From positions 2,848,001 through 2,912,000 of the forward strand of contig NZ_JAQNDL010000001.1 of NCBI RefSeq assembly GCF_028368995.1: DNA of 64,000 nt. Reading direction: 5' to 3'. Within the stretch, counting starts at the first letter, position 1, and each line of letters opens with the position of its first letter. Made by a program: the position numbers and the translations under genes. The notes under the pieces were generated by a model. The model had not been told where the DNA came from and ran no database searches. It was given only the letters and a program-made list of their open reading frames with translations. Below, piece after piece: positions 626 through 57,297 of the stretch. The DNA comes from Nannocystis bainbridge. GTDB lineage: Bacteria; Myxococcota_A; Polyangia; Nannocystales; Nannocystaceae.

Positions 626-2760
626 CGGTAGCTCTCCTTCTTGCGCACCCGCGCCGCCAGGTCGGCGTCGCTCGCCCCCGCCGCCTCGTCCTTCCACAGG
701 TTGAAGCACAGGCACTGCGCCGGCTTCGGCAGCATCCCCGTCCGCTCGCGGATCGCCGCCCGCTCGCGCAGGACCACCGCCTGCGAGCGCGGCGGCAGCA
801 GGGCCAGCAGCCGGTCCAGCTCGGCCTCCGAGAACGGCCGCAGCTCGACCTCCGTCCAGTCGCCGAGGTTCGGGTTCGACAGCTCGAAGCTCGCCAGCAC
901 CTCGGCGATCGGGTCGCGCGTGGTCACCACCAGCCGCAGCGCCCCGCCCAGCTGGGTGACCACGCGGTACAGCGCCGGCACGAACCGCTGCGCCACCTCG
1001 GGCGTCAGCCCGCCGAACTCGTCGAGCGTCAGCAGCAGCGGGCGCTGGCCCGCCGCGGTCTGGATCTCGCGCCAGCCCTTGAAGCTCTGACCATAGGCGC
1101 GCCCGACCTCGGCGAAGAACTCGTCGAGGAACAGGTTCACGTCGTCGACCCGCATCATCTGCAGGTCGAGCAGGCACACCGCCGCGCCGGTCCCGGCCTG
1201 CCACGCGCGGTCGGCCCGCAGCAGCAGGCTCGACTTGCCGATCGAGAAGTCGCCGCGCACCACCACCACCTGCGCCCCGTCGGCCAGCGCCTCGGCCAGC
1301 GCCGCGTCGGCCGCCCGCGCCACGTACGAGCGCGCCGCCAGCCCCAGCATGCCGGCCTTCTGGAACGGATTGGTCCCGGGGGACATGCCCGATACGACAT
1401 GGTCCGAAGGACCTGTCCTCACGGGCATGCCTGAAGCGACCTGTCCGTTTGCACCTGTCCCCGAGGACACGTCCGCGATGCCCGCGGGCGTGACCCCGGG
1501 CGCGCACGCGGCCTCGGCGTGGGTCCCGAGCAGGGCGGCGATCGACCCGGCCGTGTGCGACGACGAGGCGTCCGGCTCGACCGGCAGCACGATCGGCCGC
1601 AGCCCGCTCTCGCCGGCGAAGAACGGCCCGCTCTCGCCCGCCCGCGCCCCGCTGTCACCGGCCGCCCGCGCCCCGCTCACCCCCGCCCGCGCCCCGCTGT
1701 CGCCCGCCGGGTGCGCCCCGCTCACCCCCGCCCGCGCCCCGCTGTCGCCCGCCGCCCGCGCCCCGCTGTCCGTCGACTCCGCCAATCGCTCGGCCAGCCG
1801 CGGCAGGAACGCGTGAGCATCGATCCCCTTGTAGAGCACCACCCGGCCGAGCTCGATCCCCGGGCGCAGCGCCTCGAGCAGGCGGCTCGACCCGCGCACG
1901 ATCGCTGCCTCGTCCTCCGGATAGAACGCCCACGCGATCTTGATCGGCGCCAGCCCGCCGCGGATCGTCGCAATCAGCGAGCGCGTGAACACGTCGTCCC
2001 AGCCGCTGTAGCCGAGCACCACCAGCGTGCGCGCGCTGATCAGGTGGGCCAGCGACGCCGACAGCTTGGGCCGGTCCTGCCCCAGCTGCGCCGGCGTGTG
2101 CAGCGTGTCGGTGCGAAACCAGTCGCCGTGGAAATGGACCACCAGGCAGCCCTGGCCGTCGACGCCCGACAGGCTGCCGTCGCCGTGCAGCGCCGTCATG
2201 TACGCGCGCCCGCCGGCCCGGCGCACGCTGATCGACACCAGCGGGTCGAAGTTCGAGGTCAGCACCAGCGGCCGGGTCGCAGCCGGCGCGCGCGCCAGCA
2301 CCTGCCCGAGCGCGTCCGCGGCCGGCGGCAGGTGCCAGCCCTCGACATCGTCCTCGAGCGCGCGGCACACCTCGTGGTCGTCGACCACCCGCGGCGGCGC
2401 CGGGAACCGCGGCGAGGGCCGCCGCGCCAGCAGCACCGCCTGCCGGATCACCGCGTTCGCCACGTCCTGATCGCGCGTGCGCAGCAGGTGGCGAAACGCC
2501 GCCTGGTAGCGGTTGTGGGGCTCCTTCTCGAGCGCCGCCTCGAACCGCTGCAGCTCGCTCGGCCGCTGATACTCGCCGCGGATCAGCGCGATCACCCCGT
2601 CGACCCGCGGCACCCCCGGCTCGCCCGCGCGGACCGGGGCCGTGATCGCCGAGCCCACCAGGTACACCAGCTCGTGCGGCCGCGCCGAGAGCCGGTCCAG
2701 CAGGTCCTCGTCGCTCGCGAACTCGGGCGCCATCTGGCCGGCGAAGGGATCGGCGGGCAT
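622..2760 (-). CDS. SIR2-like domain fused to a C-terminal AAA_35/STAND-like ATPase
   Basis: SIR2-like motifs LVYLVGSAIT, LTSNFDPL, VHFHGD and LVVLGYSGWD. The C-terminal part has SYVARAAD, GDFSIGKSSLL and LLLTLDEFG. Likely start is ATG 2760. Confidence 0.8.
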   Translation of the reverse strand: MPADPFAGQMAPEFASDEDLLDRLSARPHELVYLVGSAITAPVRAGEPGVPRVDGVIALIRGEYQRPSELQRFEAALEKEPHNRYQAAFRHLLRTRDQDVANAVIRQAVLLARRPSPRFPAPPRVVDDHEVCRALEDDVEGWHLPPAADALGQVLARAPAATRPLVLTSNFDPLVSISVRRAGGRAYMTALHGDGSLSGVDGQGCLVVHFHGDWFRTDTLHTPAQLGQDRPKLSASLAHLISARTLVVLGYSGWDDVFTRSLIATIRGGLAPIKIAWAFYPEDEAAIVRGSSRLLEALRPGIELGRVVLYKGIDAHAFLPRLAERLAESTDSGARAAGDSGARAGVSGAHPAGDSGARAGVSGARAAGDSGARAGESGPFFAGESGLRPIVLPVEPDASSSHTAGSIAALLGTHAEAACAPGVTPAGIADVSSGTGANGQVASGMPVRTGPSDHVVSGMSPGTNPFQKAGMLGLAARSYVARAADAALAEALADGAQVVVVRGDFSIGKSSLLLRADRAWQAGTGAAVCLLDLQMMRVDDVNLFLDEFFAEVGRAYGQSFKGWREIQTAAGQRPLLLTLDEFGGLTPEVAQRFVPALYRVVTQLGGALRLVVTTRDPIAEVLASFELSNPNLGDWTEVELRPFSEAELDRLLALLPPRSQAVVLRERAAIRERTGMLPKPAQCLCFNLWKDEAAGASDADLAARVRKKESYR
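1381..1474. repeat. 14-bp-period palindromic decamer array (7 units) inside a CDS
   Basis: ggacatgccc-gata-cgacatggtc-cgaa-ggacctgtcc-tcac-gggcatgcct-gaag-cgacctgtcc-gttt-gcacctgtcc-ccga-ggacacgtcc; units start at 1381, 1395, 1409, 1423, 1437, 1451, 1465. Confidence 0.9.
1628..1770 (-). repeat. Coding tandem repeat (SGARAAGD / SGARAGV) in the interdomain linker
   Basis: About 6 copies of 21-24 bp units (cccgcccgcgccccgctg...). Confidence 0.8.
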
Positions 2761-3071
2761 CGTGTCACCCGAGAATACCCCACGCCGGGCCACCGCCCCC
2801 GCATGACGGAGGCGACAGCGAGGGCCGCGGCCGGGTGCAGCAACCCGGCCGCGCCGCTTTCCCGTGCGATTCCGCCCCGCTCGCCCGAGGCCGCCGCCAG
2901 GCCCGCCGCGCCCTCCCGGCCGCCCGGGCGGCCCGCGCTTCCCCCGTCGCTGCCTCGCCCACCTCGCCGCTCGAGTCCGGCGAGGCCCCGCGATCTCGCC
3001 GCGAACGGGCACGACCTCCGACCGCAGCCACCGGCGTGAGGCCGCGAGCCGCCGCGCCCGCCCCGCGCCTC

Positions 3072-3220
3072 TCGCCTGTCTATTCATACATGTCCAAAAG
3101 GCCATGACAATCCCTCACGCCACCTCGCCAACCTGTCCCCAAGGCCATGACACTCGCTCCCCGCGCTACGACATTCGCTCATGGCCCCTGACCGAAAGAC
3201 ATGGCCCGAGAGTCATGTCG
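3072..3220. repeat. Degenerate 14-bp-period decamer arrays in a divergent intergenic region
   Basis: Units at 3072, 3086, 3100; 3129, 3143; 3197, 3211 (e.g. atacatgtcc-aaaa-ggccatgaca). Confidence 0.65.
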
Positions 3221-3332: not shown

Positions 3333-5006
3333 ATGGTCCACGTATTCGGATTTTCGCGTCGTCCCTCGCTCGCCCTCGCCTCGCTCGTGAGCGCGACGCT
3401 GACGGCCTGCCCCGCCGAGCCGGGCGACACCACCGCCAGCGACACCGGCACCGCCAGCGACACCGGCACCGGCGACACCCTCGAGCCGACCTCCACCGGA
3501 AGCTCGACCGAAGCGCCGACCACCGGGACCACGACCACCGACGGCACCAGCACCACCGGTGAGCCCGACCCGACCCGCATCGAGCAGATCCTCGCCGCGC
3601 TCGACCTGGCCATGTACGCCTGCCCCGAGCGCGTGTGGCCGGACGTGCAGGCCAGCTACCGCGCCAGCCAGGTGCTGCTGGCGTCGGTCGAGGAAAACCG
3701 CGCCTGGCTATGGAACGACCAGCTCGGCGAGGGCACCCCGCCGAACGTGACCGAGGGCCCGCTCGACAGCTTGCCGCCGGAGTGGTCGTCGACCTTCAAC
3801 GTCGGCACCCTGCAGGGCGCGCCGACGCTGGGGATCTCCCTCGACATCACGGCCGCGCACAACGCCACGCTCGAGCAGGCGGGGATCGAGGTCTGGCCCG
3901 ACTGGGCGATCCTGCTGAGCTTCCACGAGGGCTTTCATTTCCTCAGCGCGCAGAGCGACTGGAACGTCGGCAACGGCAGCCGCACCGCCCCGTACCCCGA
4001 GCCGTGGCAGCCGCGCTACCTGCGGGCCGCGCTGCTGCACGCGCTGCTCGCCGCCGTGCAGGGCGACGCCGACGCGCTCGCGGCCGCGGCCCACTGGCAA
4101 GCGCTGCTGCAGGCCGATTTCGCCGCGGAGCTGGCCGCGGGCCGCCGCTACGAGTGCACCGAGGGCAGCGCCGAGTACGCCTCGTTGATGATGAGCGCGC
4201 TGGTCGAGCTCGGCTGCGACGCGACGGACGCCGACCTGCTCGAGCTCGCCCGCTCGCGCGCCGACGACGGGCTGTTCCTCGGCATCGAGCAGTACGATCC
4301 GGGCCGCGAGTTCTACGACCTCGGCGTGCTCGCGGGGCTGCTGCTGCGCGGCCAGCAGGCGCCCGGATGGGAGCTCGAGGTCGAGGACGGCACGCCCCCG
4401 GTCCAGCTCGCGCTCGCCGGCGTGGCCCCGGCCCCGCAGCCCGACGACCCCGCGCTGCAGGCCAGCGTGCAGGCGGTGGTGGCGGCCCGCAACGAGCAGC
4501 TCGGCGCGGAGATCGAGCCGATGCTCGAGCACATGCAGAGCCCCGAGTACACCCGGATCCCCGTGTCCTTCAACTGGATCGCCGGCTCCTTCCGGGTCGG
4601 CGGCTTCTACTACCTGGCCGACGACCCCGCCGAACCGGAGGTGCTGCTGACGTTCTCGGCCGAGCTCGATCCACCCTCGGGCGTGGCGATCTCGGTGTCC
4701 CAGATGACCGCCCTCACCGGCGTGTCGACCCCGTGCGCGCTGGCGGCCGGCAACGCGATCGTGCTGACGATCCCGACCGCCGACCTCCAGGTCGCCGCCG
4801 ACAAGGCGACCGCCGCGACCGCGAAGCTGACGTTCGCCGGCCTCGAGGTCGAAGCCACCACCGACCTCGAGGGCCTGCCGTGGCTGTGCCCGACCGACGC
4901 CGGCGGGGCCGGCTACGCCCCCGCCGAGCCCAATCCCGTGCTCGACGAGCTGCGCGCGCAGGCCCACGCCCCCGGCCACCCGCTGCGCCCGCTGCTCGGC
5001 CGCTGA
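3333..5006 (+). CDS. Lipoprotein with Thr-rich linker and a putative Zn-metallopeptidase (HExxH) domain
   Basis: Lipobox LTAC; FHEGFHF plus downstream ECTEGSAEY (gluzincin-like third ligand); GGAGG upstream of ATG 3333. Confidence 0.7.
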   Translation: MVHVFGFSRRPSLALASLVSATLTACPAEPGDTTASDTGTASDTGTGDTLEPTSTGSSTEAPTTGTTTTDGTSTTGEPDPTRIEQILAALDLAMYACPERVWPDVQASYRASQVLLASVEENRAWLWNDQLGEGTPPNVTEGPLDSLPPEWSSTFNVGTLQGAPTLGISLDITAAHNATLEQAGIEVWPDWAILLSFHEGFHFLSAQSDWNVGNGSRTAPYPEPWQPRYLRAALLHALLAAVQGDADALAAAAHWQALLQADFAAELAAGRRYECTEGSAEYASLMMSALVELGCDATDADLLELARSRADDGLFLGIEQYDPGREFYDLGVLAGLLLRGQQAPGWELEVEDGTPPVQLALAGVAPAPQPDDPALQASVQAVVAARNEQLGAEIEPMLEHMQSPEYTRIPVSFNWIAGSFRVGGFYYLADDPAEPEVLLTFSAELDPPSGVAISVSQMTALTGVSTPCALAAGNAIVLTIPTADLQVAADKATAATAKLTFAGLEVEATTDLEGLPWLCPTDAGGAGYAPAEPNPVLDELRAQAHAPGHPLRPLLGR

Positions 5007-5038: not shown

Positions 5039-5062
5039 GGACATGTCCCCGAGGACATATCC
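5039..5062. repeat. 14-bp-period decamer array (2 units)
   Basis: ggacatgtcc-ccga-ggacatatcc between convergent genes. Confidence 0.8.
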
Positions 5063-5092: not shown

Positions 5093-6280
5093 TCACGCAG
5101 GTTCGGGCAGATCGAGCTGCTCCTGTCGGGCCCAGCGGGCGATGATCTGCAGCGGCAGCCCCGCGGCCCTGCAGTTGGCGAACCCGCGGATCTGCACGAT
5201 GCGCCGCGTCTGTGGTTCGACCTCGATCGTGAACCGCGACTGGGGCGCTCCGTCGCGGCCGGCGCTGCGCAGCGACCAGATGCTCGAGATCCCGCGGACG
5301 CAGCGTCGCACGTAGGTCCCCACGCAGTGGCGCAGCGCCCGGCCCTCGGCGCGCAGCACGTCGCTCGAGAGCAGCTCGCCGATCTCCCACTGCAGCACCT
5401 TCGGATCGCCGGTGTCGTCCGCGAGCACCAGCCCCGCCCAGCCCGCGGCTCCCCACGTCCGAAACGCCCGGGACCCCGCCGTTTGCTCGCGCAGGCGCGC
5501 CAGCGCCTGCTCGCGCCGCCAGCCGCAGACCTGCATCCACATCGTATTGGCCGAATTGCCCGAGAACCGCGGCACCGCGGAGCCCTCGCCTTCACCGATG
5601 TACGTCGCCCGCAGGTACTGCACGATCGGCCCCACCTGCTGCACCGCGAGCTCGTCCCAGCGGCGGATCATCCACTGCAGCGCCTCGCGCCAGAATGCGC
5701 CGTGGCGCAGATCGGTCGCCAGCTCCGTCTGCAACACCGCCGCCACCAGCTCGGGCTCGGCCTCCAGCGCCAGCAGCTCGGCCCGGCGGATCGCCGCGCG
5801 CACCGGCAGGTCCGCAGGTGATTTCAGCAAGATCCGCTCCATCTTGCGCGTCAGCTGCAGCGGCAGCCCCGTCAGCTTGCGGAACGCCCGCCCGCCCGCG
5901 TGTTCGATGAACCACCCGCGCTCCTCGTCGCGGTCCGGCGAATCGTCGCCGAACCACGCCGAGGCCATCATGCGCGGCACCGGGTAGCGTCCCAGCAAGT
6001 GCTGCGCCAGCGAGTGAATCAACGCCTTCGGGTGGCCGCGGCCGCCCTGCCAGGTCTCGACCGGCGCCCCGTGCCATTCATGGAAGCGGGCCAGGTTGAC
6101 GATCGCCTGCACCGCCGCGGCCCCGCCGTCCAGCAGGTTCGAGACCTCGCTCGCCACCCACAGCACCCGCGCGAACACCTGTTGCGCCGCCAGATCGGCG
6201 CGCAGCGCCGCGAAACCATGACTCACCGCATGATCGACCGCCCGTCGCGCGTGGCGACGGAAACAAATCCTATTGGACAC
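5093..6280 (-). CDS. PcfJ domain-containing protein
   Basis: C-terminal LRAEGRALRHCVGTY..IWSLR..FTIEV..IVQIRGFANC is the PcfJ pattern; GTG 6280 is preceded by AGGGAG. Confidence 0.8.
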   Translation of the reverse strand: MSNRICFRRHARRAVDHAVSHGFAALRADLAAQQVFARVLWVASEVSNLLDGGAAAVQAIVNLARFHEWHGAPVETWQGGRGHPKALIHSLAQHLLGRYPVPRMMASAWFGDDSPDRDEERGWFIEHAGGRAFRKLTGLPLQLTRKMERILLKSPADLPVRAAIRRAELLALEAEPELVAAVLQTELATDLRHGAFWREALQWMIRRWDELAVQQVGPIVQYLRATYIGEGEGSAVPRFSGNSANTMWMQVCGWRREQALARLREQTAGSRAFRTWGAAGWAGLVLADDTGDPKVLQWEIGELLSSDVLRAEGRALRHCVGTYVRRCVRGISSIWSLRSAGRDGAPQSRFTIEVEPQTRRIVQIRGFANCRAAGLPLQIIARWARQEQLDLPEPA

Positions 6281-8350: not shown

Positions 8351-8352
8351 TG

Positions 8353-8418
8353 GGACATGTTATCCAGGACATGCCGCAAAGGGCATGTCCCCGCGGGCAT
8401 GCTCCTCGGGACATGTCC
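8353..8418. repeat. 14-bp-period decamer array (5 units)
   Basis: ggacatgtta-tcca-ggacatgccg-caaa-gggcatgtcc-ccgc-gggcatgctc-ctcg-ggacatgtcc, starting 2 bp after a stop; a further pair lies at 8504-8527. Confidence 0.9.
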
Positions 8419-8545
8419 TGAACGCCGCCCGGCGCCGTCACCCTGGCGCTCGGCCTCCCAGCCGCCTCGCTTCGGCCCGCGACGGCCCTTGCTTCGCAGA
8501 TGCGCACCTGTCCCTTCGGACAGACGCATCCTGCACACTGCAGCC

Positions 8546-11098: not shown

Positions 11099-11136
11099 TC
11101 GCCTGTCCCTTCGCACCTGTCGCAAGGGACATGTCC
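11099..11136. repeat. 14-bp-period decamer array (3 units)
   Basis: tcgcctgtcc-cttc-gcacctgtcg-caag-ggacatgtcc, immediately after a stop. Confidence 0.8.
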
Positions 11137-11408
11137 CTCGGGCCCGCTCAGCCCGAGGACCACGAGCGCGCGCCGCCGCGTCGCTCGTGGCGACATCGCG
11201 CCCCTTCTGCGGTCGTCGCCCGCCCCGGCACGACGCGCGACTCGACCGCCCGGACCGACGCGCACACGCTGCCCGGCCCCGAAGAGCACCGCGCCTCCGC
11301 CGGGTCATGTCCCGCGCACACGGCCCCGGAGCCCACGCGACCCCTGTCGCCCCGACCCGCGCGCCTGCGCCCGCGCGCGGCCCCTCGCTGGATGCTACGC
11401 TCCCGGCC

Positions 11409-12403: not shown

Positions 12404-12413
12404 CCGCCCCGAA

Positions 12414-12547
12414 GGACAGGTCCCAAAGGCCCTGTCCTTCGCCACATGCGCGCACGGACATGTTCTGAACATCCGTCGCACGCGCCTGCCCGATCGGACA
12501 TGCTCCTCGCAGCATGCCCCCGAGGACATGGCCCTCGGGGCATGTCC
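12414..12547. repeat. Two adjacent 14-bp-period decamer arrays (4 + 5 units)
   Basis: Units at 12414, 12428, 12442, 12456 and 12482, 12496, 12510, 12524, 12538. Confidence 0.9.
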
Positions 12548-16411: not shown

Positions 16412-16463
16412 CAGCCTGGCCGAACGAGCATGTCCCCCAGGACATGCTCGCCAGGACAGCTTA
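16412..16463. repeat. 14-bp-period decamer array (3-4 units)
   Basis: cagcctggcc-gaac-gagcatgtcc-ccca-ggacatgctc-gcca-ggacagctta. Confidence 0.8.
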
Positions 16464-18111: not shown

Positions 18112-18231
18112 GCGCGACCGCGGACCCGGGCATGCGCGTTCTTTCTCGGCTCGACCTGTCCACCGGCCCGTGCGACGCGTACGATGGCCGCGTCGCCGCG
18201 CGCGTATCCTCTGCCCCCGAGGACATGTCCC

Positions 18232-18825
18232 ATGAGCCAGATCATCATCGCCGACGCTGACGGCGCGATCGTCGAGTACGACCCCGGGTTCCTCGACCCG
18301 GGTCCGCGGTCGGCCCTGCTCGCCGAGCTGGCGCAGGTCCAGGACCGCTTCGACCGCGACCGCGTGCGCATGTACGGCAAGACCCTCGATTCGCCGCGGC
18401 TCGTGTGCGCCTTCGGCGACGACGGCCTGCACTACCGCTACGCCGGCGTCGACCGCACCACCCACCCGTGGCCGCCGCACCTCCGCGCCGCCCGCGACCG
18501 GATCGCCGACCTCTGCGGTCACCCCTTCAACTACGCCCTCGTCAACCTCTACCGCGACGGCGACGACTACATCGGCTGGCACGCCGACAAGGTCAGCGAC
18601 CTCGCCCCCGGCTCGGCGATCGCCAGCCTCAGCCTCGGCGCGGCGCGGCCGTTCCAGCTGCGCCACAAGCAGCAGGACATCGAACACGAGGTCCTGCTCG
18701 CGTCCGGCAGCCTGCTGGTCATGCGCGGCACCACCCAGCAATTTTACAAGCACGCCCTGCCGCGCCGGCGCGGCGTGACCGAGTCCCGCTTCAACGTCAC
18801 CTTCCGCCACGTGCGCGCGTCGTGA
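18232..18825 (+). CDS. AlkB-family 2OG-Fe(II) dioxygenase
   Basis: FNYALVNLYRDGDDYIGWHAD, IASLSLGAAR, GSLLVM..HALPRR..RFNVTFR. Confidence 0.92.
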   Translation: MSQIIIADADGAIVEYDPGFLDPGPRSALLAELAQVQDRFDRDRVRMYGKTLDSPRLVCAFGDDGLHYRYAGVDRTTHPWPPHLRAARDRIADLCGHPFNYALVNLYRDGDDYIGWHADKVSDLAPGSAIASLSLGAARPFQLRHKQQDIEHEVLLASGSLLVMRGTTQQFYKHALPRRRGVTESRFNVTFRHVRAS

Positions 18826-18827: not shown

Positions 18828-18973
18828 CGTAATGTCTCTCTGAACATGTCTCTCTGAACATGTCTCTCTGAACATGTCTCGATAGACGTGTTCGATAGGA
18901 CACGTCACATACCCCGCGCCGCAAGGTCGGTGCCAGACCAAAGGCCGATCGACATGATCATCGGGACATGTCT
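18828..18973. repeat. 14-bp-period decamer arrays (6 + 2 units), including a perfect 14-bp triplication
   Basis: Units at 18828, 18842, 18856, 18870, 18884, 18898, with (ctctgaacatgtct)x3; further pair at 18950, 18964. Confidence 0.9.
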
Positions 18974-23966: not shown

Positions 23967-24018
23967 CGAAATATCCGCGAGGACATGTCTTTATAGACAT
24001 ATCCTCTCGAACATCCAG
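23967..24018. repeat. 14-bp-period decamer array (4 units)
   Basis: cgaaatatcc-gcga-ggacatgtct-ttat-agacatatcc-tctc-gaacatccag. Confidence 0.8.
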
Positions 24019-29705: not shown

Positions 29706-29775
29706 AGCCATGTCTCGAAGGCCAGGTGCCCACGCGGGCGCCTGGCCTTTCGTACATGTCGCTCAGGTCATCTTC
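29706..29775. repeat. Degenerate decamer arrays between convergent genes
   Basis: agccatgtct-cgaa-ggccaggtgc; gcgcctggcc-tttc-gtacatgtcg-ctca-ggtcatcttc. Confidence 0.6.
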
Positions 29776-33095: not shown

Positions 33096-33133
33096 TCATC
33101 TGTCCCTCAAAACATGTCCTCATGAACATGTCC
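33096..33133. repeat. 14-bp-period decamer array (3 units) overlapping a gene start
   Basis: tcatctgtcc-ctca-aaacatgtcc-tcat-gaacatgtcc. Confidence 0.8.
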
Positions 33134-34015
33134 TCCGAGACAATTCACCTCCATCACGCGCGAGACCTCGAGCTGTCGGCCGCCAGCGGCCTGGTGCGCC
33201 GTGATGGTTGGTCGTTCGTGGTCGCCGACGACGAGCTCGAGCTGCACGCCTACCCGGACGACGGCCCCGCGCGCCGCTACCCGCTGCGTCCTGGCGCCCT
33301 GCCGACCGAGCCGGAGGCGCGCAAGCGGGCCAAGCCCGACTTCGAGGCCCTGTGCCCGTGGGACGGCGGCGCCCTGCTCGCGCTCGGCTCCGGCTCGCGG
33401 CCGAACCGTCACGCCGGCGTCCTCGTCCATGTCGCGAAGGACATGTCCTCTGCGACATGCCACGAATTCTCGCTCGCCCCGCTGCACGCCGCGCTCGCCG
33501 GCCTCGTGCCCGAGCTCAACCTCGAGGGCGCCGCGCTGTGGGGCGACCACCTGGTGCTGCTGCAGCGCGGCAACGGGGCCGGCAACCGCAGCGCCCTGAT
33601 CCGCCTCGACCGCGACGGCGTGGCCGCGGCCGTGGCCGCGCGCGCCGCGTGGCAGGCCGACCTGATCCGCGACCTCGCCTTCCTCGACCTCGGCGACCGC
33701 GAAGGCGTGCCCTACAGCGTCACCGACGCCGCCGCCTTGCCCGACGGCGGGCTCTTGCTCACCGCCGCCGCCGAGGACACGCGCGACACCTACGCCGACG
33801 GCGCTTGCCTCGGCTCGGCGCTGATCCGCCTCGACGCGCCGCACACCGTCCGCTGGCGGCGCGCGCTGCCGGGCCGGCTCAAGTTCGAGGGCGTATGGGC
33901 CGAGCCGGACGGCGACCTCGTCCGCGTCCACCTCGTCGCCGATGCCGATGACCGATCCGTGCGCGCCCCGCTCTGCGTCACCGTCCTCGATCCGCGCACC
34001 GGCCTCGCGCGCTGA
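33122..34015 (+). CDS. DUF6929-like protein
   Basis: LSAASGLV, KPDFEAL, LGSGS..R, LNLEGA, LQRGN, AAAEDT.DTY.DG, KFEG. Confidence 0.75.
   Translation: MNMSSETIHLHHARDLELSAASGLVRRDGWSFVVADDELELHAYPDDGPARRYPLRPGALPTEPEARKRAKPDFEALCPWDGGALLALGSGSRPNRHAGVLVHVAKDMSSATCHEFSLAPLHAALAGLVPELNLEGAALWGDHLVLLQRGNGAGNRSALIRLDRDGVAAAVAARAAWQADLIRDLAFLDLGDREGVPYSVTDAAALPDGGLLLTAAAEDTRDTYADGACLGSALIRLDAPHTVRWRRALPGRLKFEGVWAEPDGDLVRVHLVADADDRSVRAPLCVTVLDPRTGLAR
33425..33462. repeat. 14-bp-period decamer array (3 units) inside a CDS
   Basis: gtccatgtcg-cgaa-ggacatgtcc-tctg-cgacatgcca. Confidence 0.8.
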
Positions 34016-35766: not shown

Positions 35767-35791
35767 CGCCTCGGCCGTCGGCTGCGCGAAC

Positions 35792-35843
35792 GGACATGTC
35801 CGTTCGCGCATGCCCTCGAGGACATGTTCGATCGGACATGCCC
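35792..35843. repeat. 14-bp-period decamer array (4 units)
   Basis: ggacatgtcc-gttc-gcgcatgccc-tcga-ggacatgttc-gatc-ggacatgccc. Confidence 0.9.
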
Positions 35844-35920
35844 CTGAGGCCAGTGTCATTGGTTCGGGGCGGGCCCGATCTTGACGCTCGCCGCGCCACC
35901 GGGCACCTCTCGAGGTGAGC

Positions 35921-37874: not shown

Positions 37875-37925
37875 AACCATGCCCCGAGGACATGTCCTAA
37901 AAAACATGTCCTAATAGACATACTG
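37875..37925. repeat. Decamer array (4 units, one 13-bp step)
   Basis: aaccatgccc-cga-ggacatgtcc-taaa-aaacatgtcc-taat-agacatactg. Confidence 0.8.
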
Positions 37926-39322: not shown

Positions 39323-39374
39323 AGACGTGTCCTCAAGGGCATGCCTCTTCGAACATGCCCCTTCGGACCTGTCC
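39323..39374. repeat. 14-bp-period decamer array (4 units)
   Basis: agacgtgtcc-tcaa-gggcatgcct-cttc-gaacatgccc-cttc-ggacctgtcc, 1 bp from a minus-strand stop. Confidence 0.9.
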
Positions 39375-42507: not shown

Positions 42508-42573
42508 CCGCCTGACCCGAAGGACATGCCCCGAGGGACCTGTCCTAAGGGGCCTGTCCCGAAGGACCTGTCC
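42508..42573. repeat. 14-bp-period decamer array (5 units)
   Basis: ccgcctgacc-cgaa-ggacatgccc-cgag-ggacctgtcc-taag-gggcctgtcc-cgaa-ggacctgtcc. Confidence 0.9.
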
Positions 42574-42841: not shown

Positions 42842-42861
42842 GTCCGCCACCAACGGGCCGC

Positions 42862-45031: not shown

Positions 45032-45203
45032 GCGCGTCACCGCAGCCATGAATCCGAGCGCCGGTGAATTCGAGCTTCTGGACGCCGCGCGGACCCTCGG
45101 GACCCGCGCGGTTTCGCCATGCGCGTCCGCCCGTGCGCACCCCCACGCCGCGGAAGTCCTTTGCAAAAGCGGCCGGACTGCCGTGATCATCGTACCGCCC
45201 GCG

Positions 45204-45944: not shown

Positions 45945-46012
45945 CCTGTCCGCGAGGACAGGTCACATGTCTCTCGCGCCAGGTCGCACGACCTGGCCGG
46001 AAGGCCAGGCGA
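45942..46012. repeat. Decamer pairs between convergent stops
   Basis: tgacctgtcc-gcga-ggacaggtca; tcacatgtct-ctcg-cgccaggtcg; cgacctggcc-ggaa-ggccaggcga. Confidence 0.7.
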
Positions 46013-46014
46013 CC

Positions 46015-46727: not shown

Positions 46728-46826
46728 GCGGGCAGCATGCCACAGCGCGCCGGCCCCTGTAAGCCGCGGCGGACGCCGGCCGTTCGCAAGCTATCATCGG
46801 CACCCTCGCCGCCTCGTGAGCCCGTG

Positions 46827-47723: not shown

Positions 47724-47728
47724 AGGCC

Positions 47729-48340: not shown

Positions 48341-48459
48341 TTTCACCGCCTCGCACTCGCCTCGCTTTCGCGGTCGCAATGCGCTCGCGGCCATCGGCCT
48401 CGCGCGCATGAAGGTCCGTCCTTGACGTCCTCCCCCGCGGCGGGCCACCAATAGCCTGC

Positions 48460-50298
48460 GTGCCGCCCGACGAACTCGTCTCCGCCGGTCTCGCCCACGC
48501 CCGGCGGTGGGCCCTGCTCGCGGCGCTGCTCGGCTTCGCGGCCGGCTGGACCGCGTGGGCCCTGCTGCGCGGCGATCCAGCCGCGCTCGTCGCCGGCGAC
48601 CTCGACCCCGCGCAGCGGCTCGCCGCGCTCCGTGCCGGCCTCGCAGGCCTGGTCGTCCTGCCCGTCGTCTACTTCTTCGCCGCGCGGCGGCTGCAGCGAC
48701 CGCTCGCCGAGCTCGCCGTCACCTGGAATCATCGCCTCCTCCTCCTCGCCGGCGCGCCCGCCTGCGTCCTCCTCGCCGCGCCTGGCCTCGCCGAGCGGCG
48801 TGGCTTCGTCCCGCTCGCCGTCAGCCTCGGCCTCGGCCTGCTCGCCGCCGCCACCGCGTCCGGCTGGCGCGACGTGCTCGCCCGTCAGCCTGCGCGTCCG
48901 CGCCTCACCGCCGGCCTCTTGTTCGCGCTCGGCCTCGCCGTCGCCGCCCTGCTCGTCCACCTCGGCGTCGTCCGTCATCACGCCCTCGTCAGCAACATCC
49001 ACGACCTGGGCATCTTCGAGAACGTGCTGTGGCGCTCGCTCCACGGCGACCTGCTGGCCACCAGCCTGTTCCCCGGCGACACCTTCAACGGGCAACACTT
49101 CGCCCCGCTGTTGCTCGCGCTGGTCCCGTTCTACGCCCTGAGCCCGCGCGCCGAGACCCTGATCGCCCTGCAGGTGGTGTGGCTGTGCTCGGCCGCGATC
49201 CCCCTGTATCTGTTCTCGCGCCGGCGCAGCGGCAGCCTCGCGCTCGGGTTCGCCGTCACCCTCGCCTTCCTCGTCTCGCCGCTGGTCCACGCCAACGCGC
49301 TGTGGGATTTTCATGACCTCACGCTCGCCGTGCCGCTGGTGCTGTGGGCACTGTGGGCCCACGACGGCGATCGCCGGCTCGGCCTCGCCCTGGCCGTGGG
49401 CGCCCTCCTGCTCGCGCGCGAGGAGATGGGCCTCGTGGTCGCCGCGCTCGGCCTGTTCGTCGCGCTCGACGGCCGCCCGCGCCGCGGCCTCGTCCTGCTC
49501 GCGCTCGGGCTCATGTGGTTCATCCTCGTCGCCCGCGTGTTCGCGCCCGGCACCGGCGTCGGCGCCCACGCCGACGGCTTGCGCGGCAACCTGGCCGAAG
49601 CGACAGGTTATGGCGACCTCGCGCTCGCCCTGCTCGCCAACCCGCTGCGGCTCCCGCTCGAGCTGCTGCGGCCCGACAAGTTCGGCTACCTGCTGTGCCT
49701 CGGCGTCCCGCTGCTGCTGTTGCCCGCGCTCGCCGGTCGCCTGCTCGTGCTGCTGCTCCCGGCCGCCGCGATCTTCGTGCTCAGCGGCAACCAGTACGTC
49801 GCCGATCCGTACTTCCACTACACGAGCTTCTTCTTGCCCGCGGTGTTCGCCGCCGCTCCTGTCGGCGCGCTCCACCTGCAACGATGGCTCGGCGGTCCGC
49901 GAATGCACGAGCTGGCCGCCGGCATCGTCGTCGCCGCGCTCGCGTTCGGCTGGTCGTTCGGCCTGCCCGGCGGCAGCTTCCGCGCCGGCTTCCACCCGGT
50001 CCCGACCGCGCTCACCGAGGCCGAGCGCGAGCGCCACGCCTGGCTCGCCGGCCTGGCCCGCGACCTGCCCGCCGACGCGTGTGTCGCCGCCACCGGCGAC
50101 GTCGGCGCTCACCTGGCCGGCCGCCGCTGCTTCGCGTGGTTCCCGGCCCGCCTCGACGTCGACTACCTCGTCCTCCACCGCGAGGACATCAACGCCAAGC
50201 ACATGCCCCTGCTCCGCAACCTCCGCGCCGAGCAGCGCTTCCGCACCTTCGACGAGCAGCACAAGATCCTGGTGCTGCAGCGCAACCCGGACAAGTAA
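48460..50298 (+). CDS. DUF2079 family integral membrane protein (GT-C-like)
   Basis: DLGIFENVLW, HFAPLL, ETLIALQ, DFH, REE and HY motifs; many TM helices. Confidence 0.85.
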   Translation: MPPDELVSAGLAHARRWALLAALLGFAAGWTAWALLRGDPAALVAGDLDPAQRLAALRAGLAGLVVLPVVYFFAARRLQRPLAELAVTWNHRLLLLAGAPACVLLAAPGLAERRGFVPLAVSLGLGLLAAATASGWRDVLARQPARPRLTAGLLFALGLAVAALLVHLGVVRHHALVSNIHDLGIFENVLWRSLHGDLLATSLFPGDTFNGQHFAPLLLALVPFYALSPRAETLIALQVVWLCSAAIPLYLFSRRRSGSLALGFAVTLAFLVSPLVHANALWDFHDLTLAVPLVLWALWAHDGDRRLGLALAVGALLLAREEMGLVVAALGLFVALDGRPRRGLVLLALGLMWFILVARVFAPGTGVGAHADGLRGNLAEATGYGDLALALLANPLRLPLELLRPDKFGYLLCLGVPLLLLPALAGRLLVLLLPAAAIFVLSGNQYVADPYFHYTSFFLPAVFAAAPVGALHLQRWLGGPRMHELAAGIVVAALAFGWSFGLPGGSFRAGFHPVPTALTEAERERHAWLAGLARDLPADACVAATGDVGAHLAGRRCFAWFPARLDVDYLVLHREDINAKHMPLLRNLRAEQRFRTFDEQHKILVLQRNPDK

Positions 50299-50305
50299 TC
50301 CAAAT

Positions 50306-50357
50306 GGACATGTCCCATAGGACATTCTCGAAAGAGCATGTTCTTTTGAACATGTCC
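50306..50357. repeat. 14-bp-period decamer array (4 units)
   Basis: ggacatgtcc-cata-ggacattctc-gaaa-gagcatgttc-tttt-gaacatgtcc. Confidence 0.9.
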
Positions 50358-50519
50358 ATTCATTCCTATTTTCGCATCCATCACCCCGACGCCCCCGCCT
50401 GAGACTCGCTGTCCGACCGTGGCGCCTCGCTCGCCGGCGCGCGGCCGCGCTCGCACGTTTTACACAGCCTTGACCGTCGCCGCTTCCGTCCGCCGGTACA
50501 CCCGACGTCGGAGACAGCG

Positions 50520-51977: not shown

Positions 51978-52092
51978 GCGCGCGCGGGCCCGCCCGCTCG
52001 CACCCGTGCCGACAATTCCTGCCCCGAGCCCAGCCGACTGTGTAACTCTCGGGCCCGGAGGCCGGGGGCGTGGGACCCGCGGGCTCGTGCGC

Positions 52093-52779
52093 ATGAGTGA
52101 TTTCCTCGTCGAAGCCGCCCGCAGCAGCCCCGCGATCGCCGCGAGCCTGAGCAAGCTCCGGCAGCGCGCCGAGGCTGCGATCCGCGACGCCGCGATCGCC
52201 GACACCGTGCTCGACGCCCGCGATTCGGCGCCGCACCCGACCGTCCCGCGCGGCTCGGACAGCGCGACGGTGATCCCGCGCGAGCACGCCCACTCGAACG
52301 CGATCGACGCCAACACACGCGACGCCCGGAGCTGGAGCGCCGACCTCCTGCGCGACGTCGCCGCGCCCGACGTGTTCGCCAGCAACCCGCTCGGCGAGCT
52401 CGAGCTGCTGGCCCTGCGCAGCGCCCAGGCCCTGCGGACCCAGGGCTCGCGCCTGCGGCAGTTCACCATCCTGGTCGCCGGCCTCGCCGCCGCCGTCGTC
52501 GGCGCCGGCCTCTACGCCGCCGTTCAGGGCGAGTACGGCCTCGCCGGCGGGCTCGTCCTCGGCGGCCTCGTCGTGCTCGCGCTCGTCATCGGCAAGTGGA
52601 ACCCGTTCCGCCGGGCCGCCCGCTCCGCCGAGCTCGCCGAGCTCGCCGACGCCACCGCCACCACCCTGCGCCTGCGCATGCGCGCCCTCGCCGAGCTCGG
52701 CGACAGCAAGACCCGCGCGCTCGAGCAGTGGAAGGTCGTCATCGAGATGACCGAGTCCGTCCGCCGCCGCCACGCGTAG
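52093..52779 (+). CDS. 2-TM hypothetical protein
   Basis: Two hydrophobic helices in the C-terminal half; host-like codon bias. Confidence 0.65.
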   Translation: MSDFLVEAARSSPAIAASLSKLRQRAEAAIRDAAIADTVLDARDSAPHPTVPRGSDSATVIPREHAHSNAIDANTRDARSWSADLLRDVAAPDVFASNPLGELELLALRSAQALRTQGSRLRQFTILVAGLAAAVVGAGLYAAVQGEYGLAGGLVLGGLVVLALVIGKWNPFRRAARSAELAELADATATTLRLRMRALAELGDSKTRALEQWKVVIEMTESVRRRHA

Positions 52780-52790
52780 AAGATACTTTG

Positions 52791-52828
52791 GGACATGTCG
52801 ATATCGACATGTCCTGAAAGACAGCCGC
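52791..52828. repeat. 14-bp-period decamer array (2-3 units)
   Basis: ggacatgtcg-atat-cgacatgtcc-tgaa-agacagccgc. Confidence 0.8.
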
Positions 52829-52841
52829 CTCAAACGCGCGA

Positions 52842-54551
52842 CTAGGTCGCCAGGCGGTGTGTCAATGCCACGAGCGCCTCCCGCACCGCCTGCACCTGCG
52901 ACGGGTCCTGCGCGTCGAGCACGGCACGGAAAGCCGCGATCCCCTCGCCGAGCTCCGACCGGGCCGGACCGGTCAGCTCCGCGTACAGCGCCATCGCCCG
53001 CGCCAGCGCCGTCGTATTGGGCAGCGCATCGCGCGGGTGGAACTTGAACCGCTGCATCTCCTGGCGTGCCCGCTCGATCTCCGCTGTCGAGAGCTTGACC
53101 GCGCTGCCGTGGAACAGCGTCGACACGCTGTTGGTAGTGCCGACCACCTCCGCGTCGACCTCGAGCAGCCCATTGAGATCGTAAGTGAAGCGGACATCGA
53201 TGAGCACCTCGCCGGCGGATCGCTTCGGGAGCCCCTTCACCTCGACGTGGCCGAGCAGCGTGTTCTTGCTGGCTTGCGGGTGCTCACCCTGGCATACGAG
53301 GAACGCGATCTCGGTCTGTCGATCGCGGACAGTGCTGTAGCGCTGGACCCGGCTGCAGGGGATCACCGTCCCGCGATCGATGATCGGCGAGAACACATCG
53401 GCCACCTCCGCTCCGCTATATCGGCTCGTCACGGCGGTGCCGAGCGTGAACGGGGTGATGTCGGTGACTACCAAATCGCCGAGAGCGGTGTCGCCAGCGA
53501 CGAGCCCGGACTGGACTGCGGCCCCCATCGCCACCGCCTCGTCGGCGGGCAACGTGCAGAGCGGCAGGCGGCCGAACATCCGCGCGGCCAGCCGTCGCAC
53601 ACACGGCATGCGCGTCGCGCCGCCGACCAGCAGCACCTCGTCGACCTGGGACGGATCGATCCGCGCGTCTCGCAGGGCACGAACGATCACCCGCCGCAGC
53701 CGCTCCAGCAGACCCTGCCACGCCTGCTCTGCGGTCACGAGCGTGATCTCCTCGCTCAGGGCCACCCGCTCTCGACCCACGCGCAGCTCGGGATGCGCGA
53801 CCTGGACGACCTCCATGCTCGACAGCCGGTGCTTGGCCGACTCGCACAGCTCGCGCATCAGGGACCACGCTCGGCGGTCGGTGCGGAGGTCGACCCCCCG
53901 CTCTCTCACCAATCGCTCCCGCACCAGTTCCGTCAACACTTCGAGGAAATCCTCGCCACCGAGACGCGCGTCCCCGGCCGACGCCTGGACCTCCATCACC
54001 CCCTCGATAATCTCGAGCACCGTGACATCGAAGGTCCCGCCGCCGAGGTCGAGCACCACCACGCGCTGCTCGCGGTCGGCCGCATGGAGCCCGTACGCCA
54101 GCGCCGCAGCCGTCGGCTCGTGTACCAGGCGCTCGACCTTGAATCCAGCGATCTGCCCCGCCTCGCGGGTCGCCGAGCGCTGAAGCTCGCCAAAGTACGC
54201 CGGGACCGTGATCACCGCCCGCTCCACCGGCTGCCCCAAGGCCGCCTCCGTGTCCTCTTTGAGGCTACGCAGCACCATTGCGGACAGCGCCTGCGGCGTG
54301 AACTCTCGCCCACCGATCGAGTATGTGCGCGACGTACCCATGTCGCGCTTGAACACCGCCGCCGTCGCTTCGGGGTGCGTGACGAGCCGCGCCCGTGCGG
54401 CCGCGCCGACGACCCAGCGTCCGTCATCGAGCAGGCTGACGGCGCTGGGCGTGAGCGTCTCGCCGAGCGAGTTGGCCAGCACGCACGGCCGACCATCCTG
54501 TAACGCGCAGACGAGCGAATAGGTGGTCCCGAGATCGATACCGACGATCAT
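52842..54551 (-). CDS. hscC: Hsp70 family chaperone, HscC-like
   Basis: MIVGIDLGTT, AVITVPAYF, EPTAAALAYG, DLGGGTFDV, VGGATRMP, RFTYDLNGLLEV, KFHPRD. Confidence 0.85.
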   Translation of the reverse strand: MIVGIDLGTTYSLVCALQDGRPCVLANSLGETLTPSAVSLLDDGRWVVGAAARARLVTHPEATAAVFKRDMGTSRTYSIGGREFTPQALSAMVLRSLKEDTEAALGQPVERAVITVPAYFGELQRSATREAGQIAGFKVERLVHEPTAAALAYGLHAADREQRVVVLDLGGGTFDVTVLEIIEGVMEVQASAGDARLGGEDFLEVLTELVRERLVRERGVDLRTDRRAWSLMRELCESAKHRLSSMEVVQVAHPELRVGRERVALSEEITLVTAEQAWQGLLERLRRVIVRALRDARIDPSQVDEVLLVGGATRMPCVRRLAARMFGRLPLCTLPADEAVAMGAAVQSGLVAGDTALGDLVVTDITPFTLGTAVTSRYSGAEVADVFSPIIDRGTVIPCSRVQRYSTVRDRQTEIAFLVCQGEHPQASKNTLLGHVEVKGLPKRSAGEVLIDVRFTYDLNGLLEVDAEVVGTTNSVSTLFHGSAVKLSTAEIERARQEMQRFKFHPRDALPNTTALARAMALYAELTGPARSELGEGIAAFRAVLDAQDPSQVQAVREALVALTHRLAT

Positions 54552-55590: not shown

Positions 55591-56637
55591 ATGTCGCAAC
55601 CTCGCTCGCTCCTCGGCCTATTCGGTAGGCTCCTCGGCCTGTACGCACGGCGCCAGCCTCGACTGGCCCTATTCTCGGTCTTCATGCTCGTGGTATTTGC
55701 CGGCCTCGGCGGGCAGCGGTCCGCCGCGCCGTCGACTGCCTCGATCCAGCTCGCGGTGCTGGCGGAGGGCTTCGGCCTGCTCCACGGCGACGCGGGCGCG
55801 CGGCGCTTCGTCGAGTTCGCCCCCGACGGCACGCAGCGACGCGAACTGTCGCTCGACCTCGATGCTGACGCACGCTTGGTCGGCACACGCCTCGGCGCCG
55901 CTCTCGGCTGGAAAGACGGCAAAAAGGTTCGGCTGGCCGCGTTCGACGATCGCGGTCGATTGACGGATCCGTCGACGTGGGGCAAGTCAGTCCAGCGCCT
56001 GTGCGACGGCGCGGCCACCGGCGACGGCCGCTTCGCGGTCGGATGGATCGAGCAGGACGGCAAAGTGTGGTTCGTTCACGGCCCGATGGCACAGGCCATC
56101 GCCTTCGAGGCTCCGCATGCGGCCGACATCGAGCCTCTGCGGGCAGACTGGTGCGGCATCGCCTCGGCGGAGCACAACATCGCCCTGATGTGGAAGGGCA
56201 AGCATACCTACATCAATTTCTGCGGTCCGCGCGAATGCTCGAGTCTGGTCGCCCGAATCCAGATCGACGCACGTGAGCGTGTACTGAGCTTTGGTTGCCT
56301 GCGCGACAGCTGCCTCGTCGGCACACGGGATGATCGCGGCATCTCCCGCGTCCACCTCGTGACCCCGCTCGGCAAGATCGCGTGGAGCCGCACGCTCGCG
56401 CCCGGAGACGGCGGCGCTTTGACGATCGTCGGCGCTGGCGATCGCGCGTTCCTGGTCGCCGCCGCTGACGGCGACGGCTCCCAGGTCCTCCGCTTCGAAA
56501 CGACAGGAAAGAGCACACCGGTGTGGCAGCGCCGCGGCGCCTCGGTCCCGAGCCTCGCTTGGTCGCGTGGGCGTCTCGCCCTGGCGCACGCGGAGGCTGG
56601 CGGGGTCCGTAACGAGTTTGTCACGGTCCCCCGCTGA
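55591..56637 (+). CDS. Hypothetical exported beta-rich protein
   Basis: N-terminal hydrophobic helix, paired cysteines, atypical codon usage. Confidence 0.65.
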   Translation: MSQPRSLLGLFGRLLGLYARRQPRLALFSVFMLVVFAGLGGQRSAAPSTASIQLAVLAEGFGLLHGDAGARRFVEFAPDGTQRRELSLDLDADARLVGTRLGAALGWKDGKKVRLAAFDDRGRLTDPSTWGKSVQRLCDGAATGDGRFAVGWIEQDGKVWFVHGPMAQAIAFEAPHAADIEPLRADWCGIASAEHNIALMWKGKHTYINFCGPRECSSLVARIQIDARERVLSFGCLRDSCLVGTRDDRGISRVHLVTPLGKIAWSRTLAPGDGGALTIVGAGDRAFLVAAADGDGSQVLRFETTGKSTPVWQRRGASVPSLAWSRGRLALAHAEAGGVRNEFVTVPR

Positions 56638-56649
56638 AGCCTCCCGGGT

Positions 56650-57297
56650 TCAGCCCTGCACCGGCCTGAACTCCGGCCCGCGGAACACCTGCCTGGCGTT
56701 GCCGCGCTCGATCGCGTTGTGCTCATCCCAGCGGGCTCGTTCGGCCTCGCCGCGGCGGGCGGCCGCCCCGGCCAGCAGCAGGGCCGCCAGCCGCTCGCGG
56801 GCGATCCGGCGGTTCTGCCCCTGCGAGCGCTCCTCGCGGGCCACCACCTCGAGGCCCGACGGTTTGTGGCGCAGACGGACCGCCGTGCTGCGCTTGTTGA
56901 CGTTCTGCCCGCCCGAGCCGCCGCTGCGGACCGCCGACTCCTCGAGGTCCGCCTCGCGCAGCGTCGCCTCGACCTCCGCCTCGACCGGCAGGCGCGTCAG
57001 CTTGACGAACCAGTTGCGCCGGCGGTGCGTCGGCCGCAGCGGGCTGCGCCCGATCCACTGCGCCGTGCCCTCCCACTGCGACAGCAGCGTCGCGATGGCT
57101 GTCCCATCGGACATGTCCTCGAGTTCATACACCAGCGACCACGCCGTCTCGGCCGCCGGCCCGTCCGCGCGCTGCAGCTCCTCGCAGCCGAGGCCCGCCG
57201 CCGCCGCCGCCGCCACGAACACCGGCCCGAGGCGGTGGACCACCCACGCCAGCTCCGGCGGCCCGTGACCGCCGGAGATCAGGACCCACGCCTTCAT
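56650..57297 (-). CDS. prfH: Peptide chain release factor H
   Basis: [53 protein letters not shown]; 4-bp overlap with rtcB. Confidence 0.9.

Follow-up and report, generated by a model that had tools for sequence, protein, structure and literature searches.

Palindromic 14-bp sites TGTCC-N4-GGACA, single or in gapless phased arrays, are abundant in the genus Nannocystis

We analysed a 64,000-nucleotide stretch of the Nannocystis bainbridge genome (contig NZ_JAQNDL010000001.1, positions 2,848,001 to 2,912,000; hereafter the window), in which an earlier note had described dispersed arrays of a palindromic decamer, GGACATGTCC, with 4 variable bases between its copies and a near-constant 14-bp period. 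The repeat unit proves to be a 14-bp palindrome, TGTCC-N4-GGACA (hereafter the module), which is abundant in one genus and whose copies stand singly or abut without gaps. Where two modules abut, their joint makes up the decamer, and the '4 variable bases' are the module centre. The 14-bp period arises because the sites abut head to tail with no gap between them. In the reading that we prefer, which we hold tentatively and at a little less than an even chance, the modules are phased sites on double-stranded DNA for a putative dimeric protein, with a niche like that of the REP/BIME repeats and a spread like that of the cyanobacterial palindrome HIP1; the binding partner and the function are what we infer from these patterns.

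The window has a base composition of 71% GC. It holds nine exact copies of the decamer, and none was obtained in 100 dinucleotide shuffles. At up to two mismatches, 82 matches were found (mean of 26.8 in 200 first-order Markov simulations). Distances between these matches peaked at 14 bp (22 pairs), 28 bp (13), 42 bp (9) and 56 bp (4), and the simulations gave a mean of 0.025 and a maximum of 1 pair at 14 bp. The 14-bp arrays were also detected by Tandem Repeats Finder, with 3.5 perfect copies at 18832-18880. TGTCC-N4-GGACA occurred 37 times at up to one mismatch, compared to 1.71 ± 1.34 in shuffles. With the exact count and the 14-bp pairs so far above shuffles and simulations, the phased arrays of the window are confirmed; an array is present at all ten of the start positions that had been given as examples, and the distance peaks expected at 14, 28 and 42 bp appear here as well as genome-wide. 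The number of loci was lower than the 'about 30' that had been claimed. We counted 17 loci with at least two decamers (up to two mismatches) or, by another count, 20 loci with at least two in-register modules, drawn from 64 clusters. Multi-module loci started within 25 nt of a stop codon in 13 of 20 cases.

The whole genome (an 11.05-Mb assembly of five contigs, labelled G000) contains 1987 exact modules and 6245 at up to one mismatch; the reversed control word gave 3 and 164, respectively. TGTCC inverted repeats with centres of N0 to N8 numbered 6, 0, 8, 16, 1987, 5, 3, 2 and 2, and among all 1024 five-base words only TGTCC showed an inverted-repeat excess at one spacing. The decamer is present in 956 copies, which is rank 4 among all 1024 palindromes of ten bases (139 copies for the next one with an equal base composition), and in 12,834 copies at up to two mismatches. 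We consider the module to be the elementary unit because of the half-site counts, namely the excess at N4 and the fact that 1145 of the 1987 modules are flanked by no further half-site, whereas just 196 of the 956 decamers stand alone. Hence, the period described earlier stands, but the repeat had been placed in the wrong register.

Genome-wide, among decamer matches at up to two mismatches, 2655 pairs lay 14 bp apart, compared to 21 and 10 pairs at distances of 13 and 15 bp, respectively; the peak recurred at 28 bp (1235), 42 bp (953), 56 bp (461) and 70 bp (193). In-register arrays had two units in 1913 cases, three in 459, four in 351, five in 286, six in 180, seven in 57 and 8-12 in 28. 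The spacers do diverge while the 14-bp phase is kept, as had been stated: among 4116 decamers, adjacent spacers were identical 74 times (48 expected), which is near random. The listed centre variants of the decamer are also real, with counts in tandem gaps of 2232 for CATG, 265 for CCTG, 255 for CAGG, 46 for CATA, 25 for CACG and 18 for CGTG; a further centre, CATC, occurred 102 times. A period of three units (42 bp, four helical turns) had been proposed too. An excess of 42-bp pairs was seen, in the gaps as well as genome-wide, but the lag-3 correlation of unit quality was only 0.026 and we rejected this super-period; the distribution of array sizes may account for the excess. Module density is fairly uniform along the contigs, except that it falls to 2-3 per 100 kb where the GC skew is weak or atypical. 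These 100-kb stretches, in contig C1 (1.1-1.3 Mb and 0.5-0.6 Mb) and contig C2 (1.8-1.9 Mb), may be either very long genes or DNA acquired recently.

Gene positions were taken from our own crude caller, based on GC content at third codon positions (GC3) and a codon score, which gave 7902 genes covering 82% of the genome; the location figures are therefore approximate. Gap counts and densities refer to modules at up to one mismatch. Intergenic DNA makes up 18% of the genome and carries about 60% of the modules, mostly a short way 3' of stop codons; the remainder are intragenic. Modules were present in 752 of 1339 convergent gaps (56%), 1011 of 3905 tandem gaps and 239 of 1454 divergent gaps (16%), with densities of 4.63, 1.73 and 0.59 modules per kb, respectively. 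The module nearest to a stop codon lies at a median distance of 32 nt, and at 25 nt or less in 44.5% of cases. Counting the ends with a gap of at least 40 nt, 2043 of 5898 gene 3' ends (35%) have a module within 150 nt. Arrays of 4 to 7 units were intergenic in 77-89% of cases. Among gap arrays of at least four units, 60% were in convergent gaps, which make up 16% of the gap length, and 3.2% in divergent gaps, which make up 29.5%.

Modules are abundant inside genes as well. Called genes hold 741 exact modules, compared to 19-32 in five within-gene synonymous codon shuffles (∼29-fold). A clear local coding signature was observed for 610 of the 741, and the pooled flanks have a GC3 of 0.93. Intragenic modules are spread evenly along the genes, with 422, 256 and 63 in frames 2, 1 and 0, respectively. 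Of the 28 arrays with at least 8 units, seven fall within called genes, and a 42-nt (14-codon) super-repeat is seen in some of these. The window array at 1372-1469 is in frame within a stop-free open reading frame (ORF), 622-3105 on the minus strand, where it reads as a Ser/Gly/Thr/Pro-rich stretch and, going by its translation, would encode a linker of that kind. GC by codon position is 0.75/0.48/0.98-0.99 on one side (622-1380) and 0.78/0.66/0.97 on the other (1475-1900), in the same frame, and is flat within the array (0.61/0.61/0.65). The same SIR2-like ORF also carries a C- and G-rich 45-nt tandem repeat at 1627-1767 (3.1 copies, 89% matches).

Five relatives are syntenic with the window at 85-91% identity. 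Arrays are mostly found at the same gene ends in these relatives, with different unit numbers and centres. Module-free gaps, mostly divergent, are stable in length (e.g. 206/205/204/204), and the lengths of 3'-end gaps are highly variable (e.g. 95/334/1385/611/1379). For a conservation test, 390 kb was aligned with one relative, G005 (megablast blocks only), covering 26 coding and 15 intergenic modules. The background identity was 0.849 for intergenic bases and 0.851 for third codon positions. Third codon positions in half-sites were identical in 91 of 94 cases, compared to 282 of 343 in the flanks (p 1.2e-4), and intergenic half-site bases in 136 of 150, compared to 414 of 551 (p 1.7e-5). Identity of the module centres was just 0.65-0.71.

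The family is abundant in Nannocystis alone, with traces in two sister genera. A search for the two-decamer pattern in one genome each of 185,579 species returned 78 stretches, of which 64 were titled Nannocystis, 9 came from a metagenome-assembled genome (MAG) of Nannocystaceae, 2 from a 'Myxococcales' MAG and 3 were single matches elsewhere. Among 41 genomes of the bacterial family, CATGTCC-N4-GGACATG was present in 16-369 copies in Nannocystis (4 of 4 genomes, the window's own included), in 2-6 copies in genus g2 (4 of 4) and in 1-39 copies in genus g4 (4 of 4). The 29 genomes of 14 other genera yielded no match, and the reversed control gave 0 in all 41. No comparable family built on another word was seen in 200-kb samples of two sister-genus genomes (G011 and G036), and the two-module pattern had no match in viral contigs.

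We examined whether bases or base pairs are kept in the modules. Single-mismatch modules in tandem gaps deviate rarely at positions 1, 2 and 4 and commonly at positions 3 and 5, where transversions are about as frequent as transitions; likewise, the position-specific information in the half-site is strong at T1, G2 and C4 and weak at positions 3 and 5. This profile, transversions included, points to a pattern of base contacts rather than to stem stability. Module flanks pair no better than base frequencies predict (0.483 observed and 0.468 expected at position 1 of isolated modules). No covariation was seen between the two spacers that border a decamer (0.26-0.30 observed and 0.25-0.29 expected), and we therefore rejected an alternate hairpin with a CATG loop and the spacers as its stem. 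At deviating positions, the neighbouring unit was complementary in 17% of cases, compared to 11% with shuffled partners, and uncompensated deviations predominate. Beyond the fixed consensus, no general base-pair covariation was found in either register (module flanks or decamer spacers). In tandem gaps, the sense strand carried 329 single transitions of the G:U type and 281 of the A:C type (p 0.057). The sense-strand centres showed no preference for a UUCG loop, TTCG and CGAA being found 29 and 44 times in genes and 65 and 66 times in tandem gaps, respectively.

The variants also have a replication-strand asymmetry that is independent of gene direction. On the G-rich strand, G:T-type variants in gaps numbered 910 and A:C-type variants 448 (background ratio 1.34), and variants towards G or T were 2-3 times as frequent as their complements. 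Genes themselves do not favour the leading strand (3883, compared to 4019 on the lagging strand). The skew of transversions towards G matches that of the G:T-type variants (e.g. 230 C5>G compared to 75 G6>C), so we read the asymmetry as mutational skew and not as evidence of structure, and on the same ground rejected a hairpin on the lagging-strand template.

A dimer-site model fits best with the rigid N4, the position-specific information, the absence of covariation and of a sense-strand bias, and the synonymous conservation of half-sites. Each module would be a recognition site on double-stranded DNA for a dimer of a sequence-specific protein, one subunit contacting each 5-bp half-site across a fixed, unread 4-bp centre. 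Neighbouring dimers in an array would be 14 bp apart, ∼120 degrees round the helix, and their binding would probably be cooperative. Half-sites and phase would be maintained by selection, with the centres left to drift, and slippage of 14-bp units would change the array length. Sites would be excluded from promoter-only gaps and would accumulate at the ends of transcription units, where a bound array could be a barrier to transcription or supercoiling, or a nucleoid anchor. Phased sites for a cooperatively binding dimeric protein had been one of two models in the earlier note; it is still the best fit, but the site is not the decamer and the 42-bp super-period is not supported. A bolder version would have a lineage-specific DNA-binding protein polymerise on phased 14-bp palindromes, which selection would have placed past about one-third of the genes and in over half of the convergent gaps. 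The arrays would then encode the boundaries of transcription units in the DNA sequence, as roadblock terminators, supercoil barriers or nucleoid anchors, a type of system that is not known to have been described for bacteria; this we regard as possible but doubtful.

Several observations speak against protein-binding sites. No binding protein for the module was identified among the leads and genes screened. The 60 genes with modules in divergent promoters gave nothing convincing and nothing recurrent as an autoregulated binder; nine small genes are among them, one of which looks ArsR-like by eye. The PadR operator, given as ATGT-N8-ACAT in the excerpted text of PMC3506622, fits the extended module, and PadR was rejected as the binder because PF03551 had no match in the window's genome (the control was positive in 14 of 14 reference genomes). 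The crude GC3-based caller weakens the location evidence, the conservation sample is small (41 modules from one species pair, the intergenic ones being those that megablast could align), and molecular drive would predict the synonymous-site conservation just as well. Some signals of pairing are also present. The symmetric double variant TGCCC-N4-GGGCA was observed 146 times against 86 expected, an excess that pairing would predict; G:C and A:T were not enriched at the same two positions (3 and 8, all eight remaining bases kept constant), and smaller excesses occurred at other pairs. For full 10-bp pairing of neighbouring decamers on the sense strand, G:T numbered 1511 and A:C 1164. The predicted RNA folds of arrays would be stable if transcribed (z -1.9 to -6.2), and their location implies transcription of the arrays, unless the arrays are what halts it. 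Finally, 77 of 369 T-tract terminators adjoining modules begin 0-4 nt past a module, as in classical terminators.

The pairing signals bear on an explanation in which the arrays act in RNA, as REP does in Escherichia coli. Neighbouring units would pair into transcribed hairpins with stems of 5-10 bp and loops of 4 nt at mRNA 3' ends. These would block exonucleases or terminate transcription, and the stem sequence might be recognised by an RNA-binding protein. The position right after stop codons, the presence of a module at about a third of gene 3' ends, the stable predicted folds, the slight sense-strand G:U excess in both counts and the enriched double variant are all in line with this. A T-tract directly follows the last unit in some arrays, and a classical terminator scan of window positions 35000-54000 (8 sites, compared to 4.6 ± 2.5 in shuffles) put no site on an array, a further point in its favour; one of the scan sites coincides with a gene end, covering the 3' terminus of 37985-39031. 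However, general covariation is lacking and mid-stem mismatches at position 3 are common, with transversions included. A loop of exactly 4 (1987 compared to 16 and 5 for the adjacent lengths) is stricter than folding requires, the stable UUCG loop is not favoured, and sites are maintained inside genes in all three frames. The arrays do not in general resemble intrinsic terminators, in which a GC-rich hairpin precedes a U-tract: T is at 0.10-0.19 from the eleventh downstream base, similar to the upstream level, and a T-tract hairpin was found at just 370 of the 2043 module-bearing 3' ends. Nor are modules a substitute for T-tract terminators, since such hairpins occur at 18% of the 3' ends with modules and 12% of those without; mutual exclusion of the two was therefore rejected. 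We consider it unlikely that the family works through transcribed hairpins.

Molecular drive could make the word abundant without any function in place, either as an uptake signal (DNA uptake sequence, DUS, or uptake signal sequence, USS) or through methylation-linked or biased repair, as was once proposed for HIP1; the arrays would be a slippage by-product where selection does not oppose them. The over-representation of the word in genes and gaps alike, the synonymous-site conservation, the restriction to one genus with traces in two others, the accumulation in promoter-free gaps and the slippage evident in the perfect copies at 18832-18880 all agree with this, and so does the low density in stretches with atypical GC skew, as expected of recently acquired DNA. 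The uptake signals known to us, however, are neither palindromic nor arranged in phased tandem arrays. Neighbouring spacers would also be alike if slippage were acting alone, yet they are near random with the phase kept, and HIP1 itself is argued, in the abstract of PMC5861425, to reflect selection and not neutral replenishment. Drive thus appears improbable to us. Far less credible is a mobile element of the REP/REPIN type or a miniature inverted-repeat transposable element (MITE), copied by a transposase encoded elsewhere; the earlier note, in its other model, had suggested a REP/BIME-like family with its own enzyme and a RAYT/TnpA-REP-like gene. The location 3' of genes and in convergent gaps is indeed REP/BIME-like, unit number at the same gap differs between species, and copy number varies widely among genomes of g4. 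But Y1/RAYT (PF01797) had no match in 11 Nannocystis genomes, one of them a single 13.2-Mb contig (the control was positive in 6 of 14 reference genomes), which led us to reject the RAYT/REP model. PF05635 had no match in the window's genome, and no transposase was seen in the window. Moreover, nothing is conserved outside the arrays, there are no terminal repeats and no signal of target duplication, the centres are near random and not those of master copies, and sites occur inside genes. Phased sites for a dimeric protein therefore remain the reading that we prefer.

The statement that this interspersed family has no named match has held. No Rfam family matched the 64-kb window at its gathering score, and no published description of the family was found in the literature searched. 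The decamer string retrieved papers on p53 or unrelated eukaryotic and viral subjects and no bacterial repeat family among the matches listed. The module strings retrieved no paper, and searches of Nannocystis with repeat or palindrome topics, and of the half-sites with inverted repeat or terminator, gave nothing relevant. Scanning 54 window ORFs against Pfam revealed ordinary genes and no transposase or cas gene near the arrays, again as had been claimed. The window loci are collected in Table 1.

Table 1. Module loci of the window, with their gene context and locus-specific observations (relatives are the five syntenic genomes).
Positions	Modules	Position in the earlier note	Gene context	Observations
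1372..1469	array, 5 modules in 7 slots	1381	inside ORF 622-3105 (-)	
5044..5057	single exact module		between convergent 3387-5006 (+) and 5093-6178 (-)	
8358..8413	array, 3 modules in 4 slots	8353	7 nt past stop of 6842-8350 (+)	RNA fold of 8345-8425: -37.5 kcal/mol, z -3.3
8509..8522	listed module locus			
11104..11145	array, 3 modules		5 nt past stop of 10589-11098 (+)	
12405..12460	array, 3 modules in 4 slots	12414	1 nt past stop of 11846-12403 (+)	
12487..12542	second array, out of phase with the first		same convergent gap as 12405..12460	
16431..16458	2 modules		22 nt past stop of PA14-domain gene 15341-16408 (+)	arrays also in G005 and G007
18212..18239	2 modules, unusual 5' position		overlap start region of 2OG-Fe(II) oxygenase gene 18232-18825 (+)	right half-site GGACA then TG kept in 5 of 5 relatives; left half-site with one to several mismatches, poorest in G003
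18833..18902	array, 4 modules in 5 slots, with 3.5 perfect 14-bp copies	18828	7 nt past 2OG-Fe(II) oxygenase stop	
23972..24013	array, 3 modules	23967	7 nt past stop of 22813-23964 (+)	
29743..29770	2 degenerate modules		45 nt past stop of 28030-29697 (+)	beside GC-rich hairpin
33101..33142	array, 3 modules, atypical position		divergent gap, 75 nt upstream of 33218	
35783..35852	array, 5 modules	35792	16 nt past stop of VTT-domain gene 35134-35766 (+)	RNA fold z -4.1; relatives with 0-1 modules there (up to one mismatch)
37893..37920	2 modules		convergent gap, 22 nt past stop of 35915-37870 (+)	orthologous gap length 114 to 822 nt
39328..39369	array	39323		array in 5 of 5 relatives, unit numbers and spacers differ
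42513..42568	array, 4 modules	42508	5 nt past stop of PD40 gene 41362-42507 (+)	
45947..45960	exact module		2 nt past stop of lipid desaturase gene 45183-45944 (+)	CTGTCC-N4-(G/A)GACAG kept in 5 of 5 relatives, each with a different 4-nt centre; fold -22.5 kcal/mol
50297..50352	array, 3 modules in 4 slots	50306	overlaps stop of DUF2079 gene 48460-50298 (+)	fold z -6.2
52796..52823	2 modules		between convergent 52087-52779 (+) and Hsp70 gene 52842-54482 (-)	
57100..57127	2 modules	57109-57118 (end point)	inside RF-1-domain gene 56650-57297 (-)	decamer kept in 5 of 5 relatives, within coding sequence 86-94% identical

The modules at the oxygenase gene start could affect the start of translation or transcription. 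At 29698-29762, a GC-rich hairpin with a T-containing tail is conserved in the relatives and flanked by degenerate modules; classical terminator-like hairpins therefore exist beside the module family. In two relatives, G001 and G007 (loci L010 and L007), the orthologues of 45945-46014 contain a second repeat of ∼22 bp with a CCTGTCTCT(C/T)GGGCCAG core, which resembles a degenerate module; it is multiplied in these gaps, which expand to 171 and 498 nt, respectively. The first ∼9 kb of the window has no syntenic match in the five relatives and nevertheless carries the loci at 1372, 5044 and 8358. Its ORFs include a SIR2_2-domain gene (622-3105, minus strand), an AAA_35/AAA_22 gene (2-1507, minus strand) and a PcfJ-like gene (5093-6178, minus strand), and the segment 2-6178 looks like a strain-specific, possibly defence-related island. 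Unrelated tandem repeats are located at 33968-34146 (86-bp unit, 2.1 copies, 97%) and 63746-63912 (54-bp unit, 3.1 copies, 82%).

If a protein reads the modules, a single word would mark the downstream end of about one-third of the genes in a genome of 11-13 Mb. It would offer a handle on how transcription units are delimited in GC-rich bacteria with few classical terminators, on the insulation of convergent transcription and on the sequence specificity of nucleoid proteins. The rule of N4 against N3 or N5 makes binding experiments easy to design. The word is, in addition, a strong Nannocystis signature, useful for metagenome binning and for detecting foreign DNA in this natural-product producer.

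Like REP/BIME (REPIN; Enterobacteria, Pseudomonas), the modules are short and palindromic, are repeated hundreds to thousands of times, and are clustered and lineage-specific, located 3' of genes, rich in convergent gaps and scarce in promoter-only or divergent ones. A REP unit is an imperfect hairpin of 20-40 nt with a conserved 5' tetranucleotide, whereas the module is 14 bp long with a free 4-bp centre and abuts in strict phase; a RAYT gene, strictly extragenic copies and a stem kept by pairing, all features of REP/BIME, were not found for it in our analyses. The likeness suggested by the earlier note thus extends to location and not to these three features. In the operators of ribbon-helix-helix proteins (MetJ metboxes, omega heptads), dimers bind cooperatively to short sites that abut with a fixed period. 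These operators resemble the module arrays in architecture but lie in the promoters of small regulons. The DUS of Neisseria and the USS of Pasteurellaceae are, like the module, genus-level words in genes and gaps, often form hairpins 3' of genes and are rare in foreign DNA. To our knowledge, they are asymmetric, occur as single copies or inverted pairs and never form phased arrays.

CdbA is described in the excerpted text of PMC7156744 as a sequence-reading nucleoid protein of Myxococcus with hundreds of sites in genes and gaps; we rejected it as a counterpart because its motif, as given there, is a direct repeat separated by 4 bp and not a palindrome. Excerpts of PMC2700814 report multicopy intergenic and intragenic sequences in Geobacter metallireducens, called 'putative global regulator binding sites', some of them tandem (four heptamers, consensus GGACCGG). 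As presented in those excerpts, they are short, multicopy and both genic and intergenic like the modules, but differ in sequence, in architecture and in number (tens compared to thousands of copies). In spread, the modules resemble HIP1 (GCGATCGC), also a short palindrome far above expectation, genic and intergenic and conserved between genomes; its function is unknown, a nucleoid role has been proposed and selection is argued over neutral replenishment, according to the abstract of PMC5861425. The module shares the abundance in genes and gaps (1987 compared to 3 for the control; 741 compared to 19-32) and the conservation beyond background (41 modules, one species pair), and offers a second, independent case of a palindrome at high copy number inside genes. 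Unlike HIP1, it is another word in another phylum, is interrupted (5-N4-5), is 7-8 times denser in intergenic DNA, is concentrated at 3' ends and is built into phased tandem arrays.

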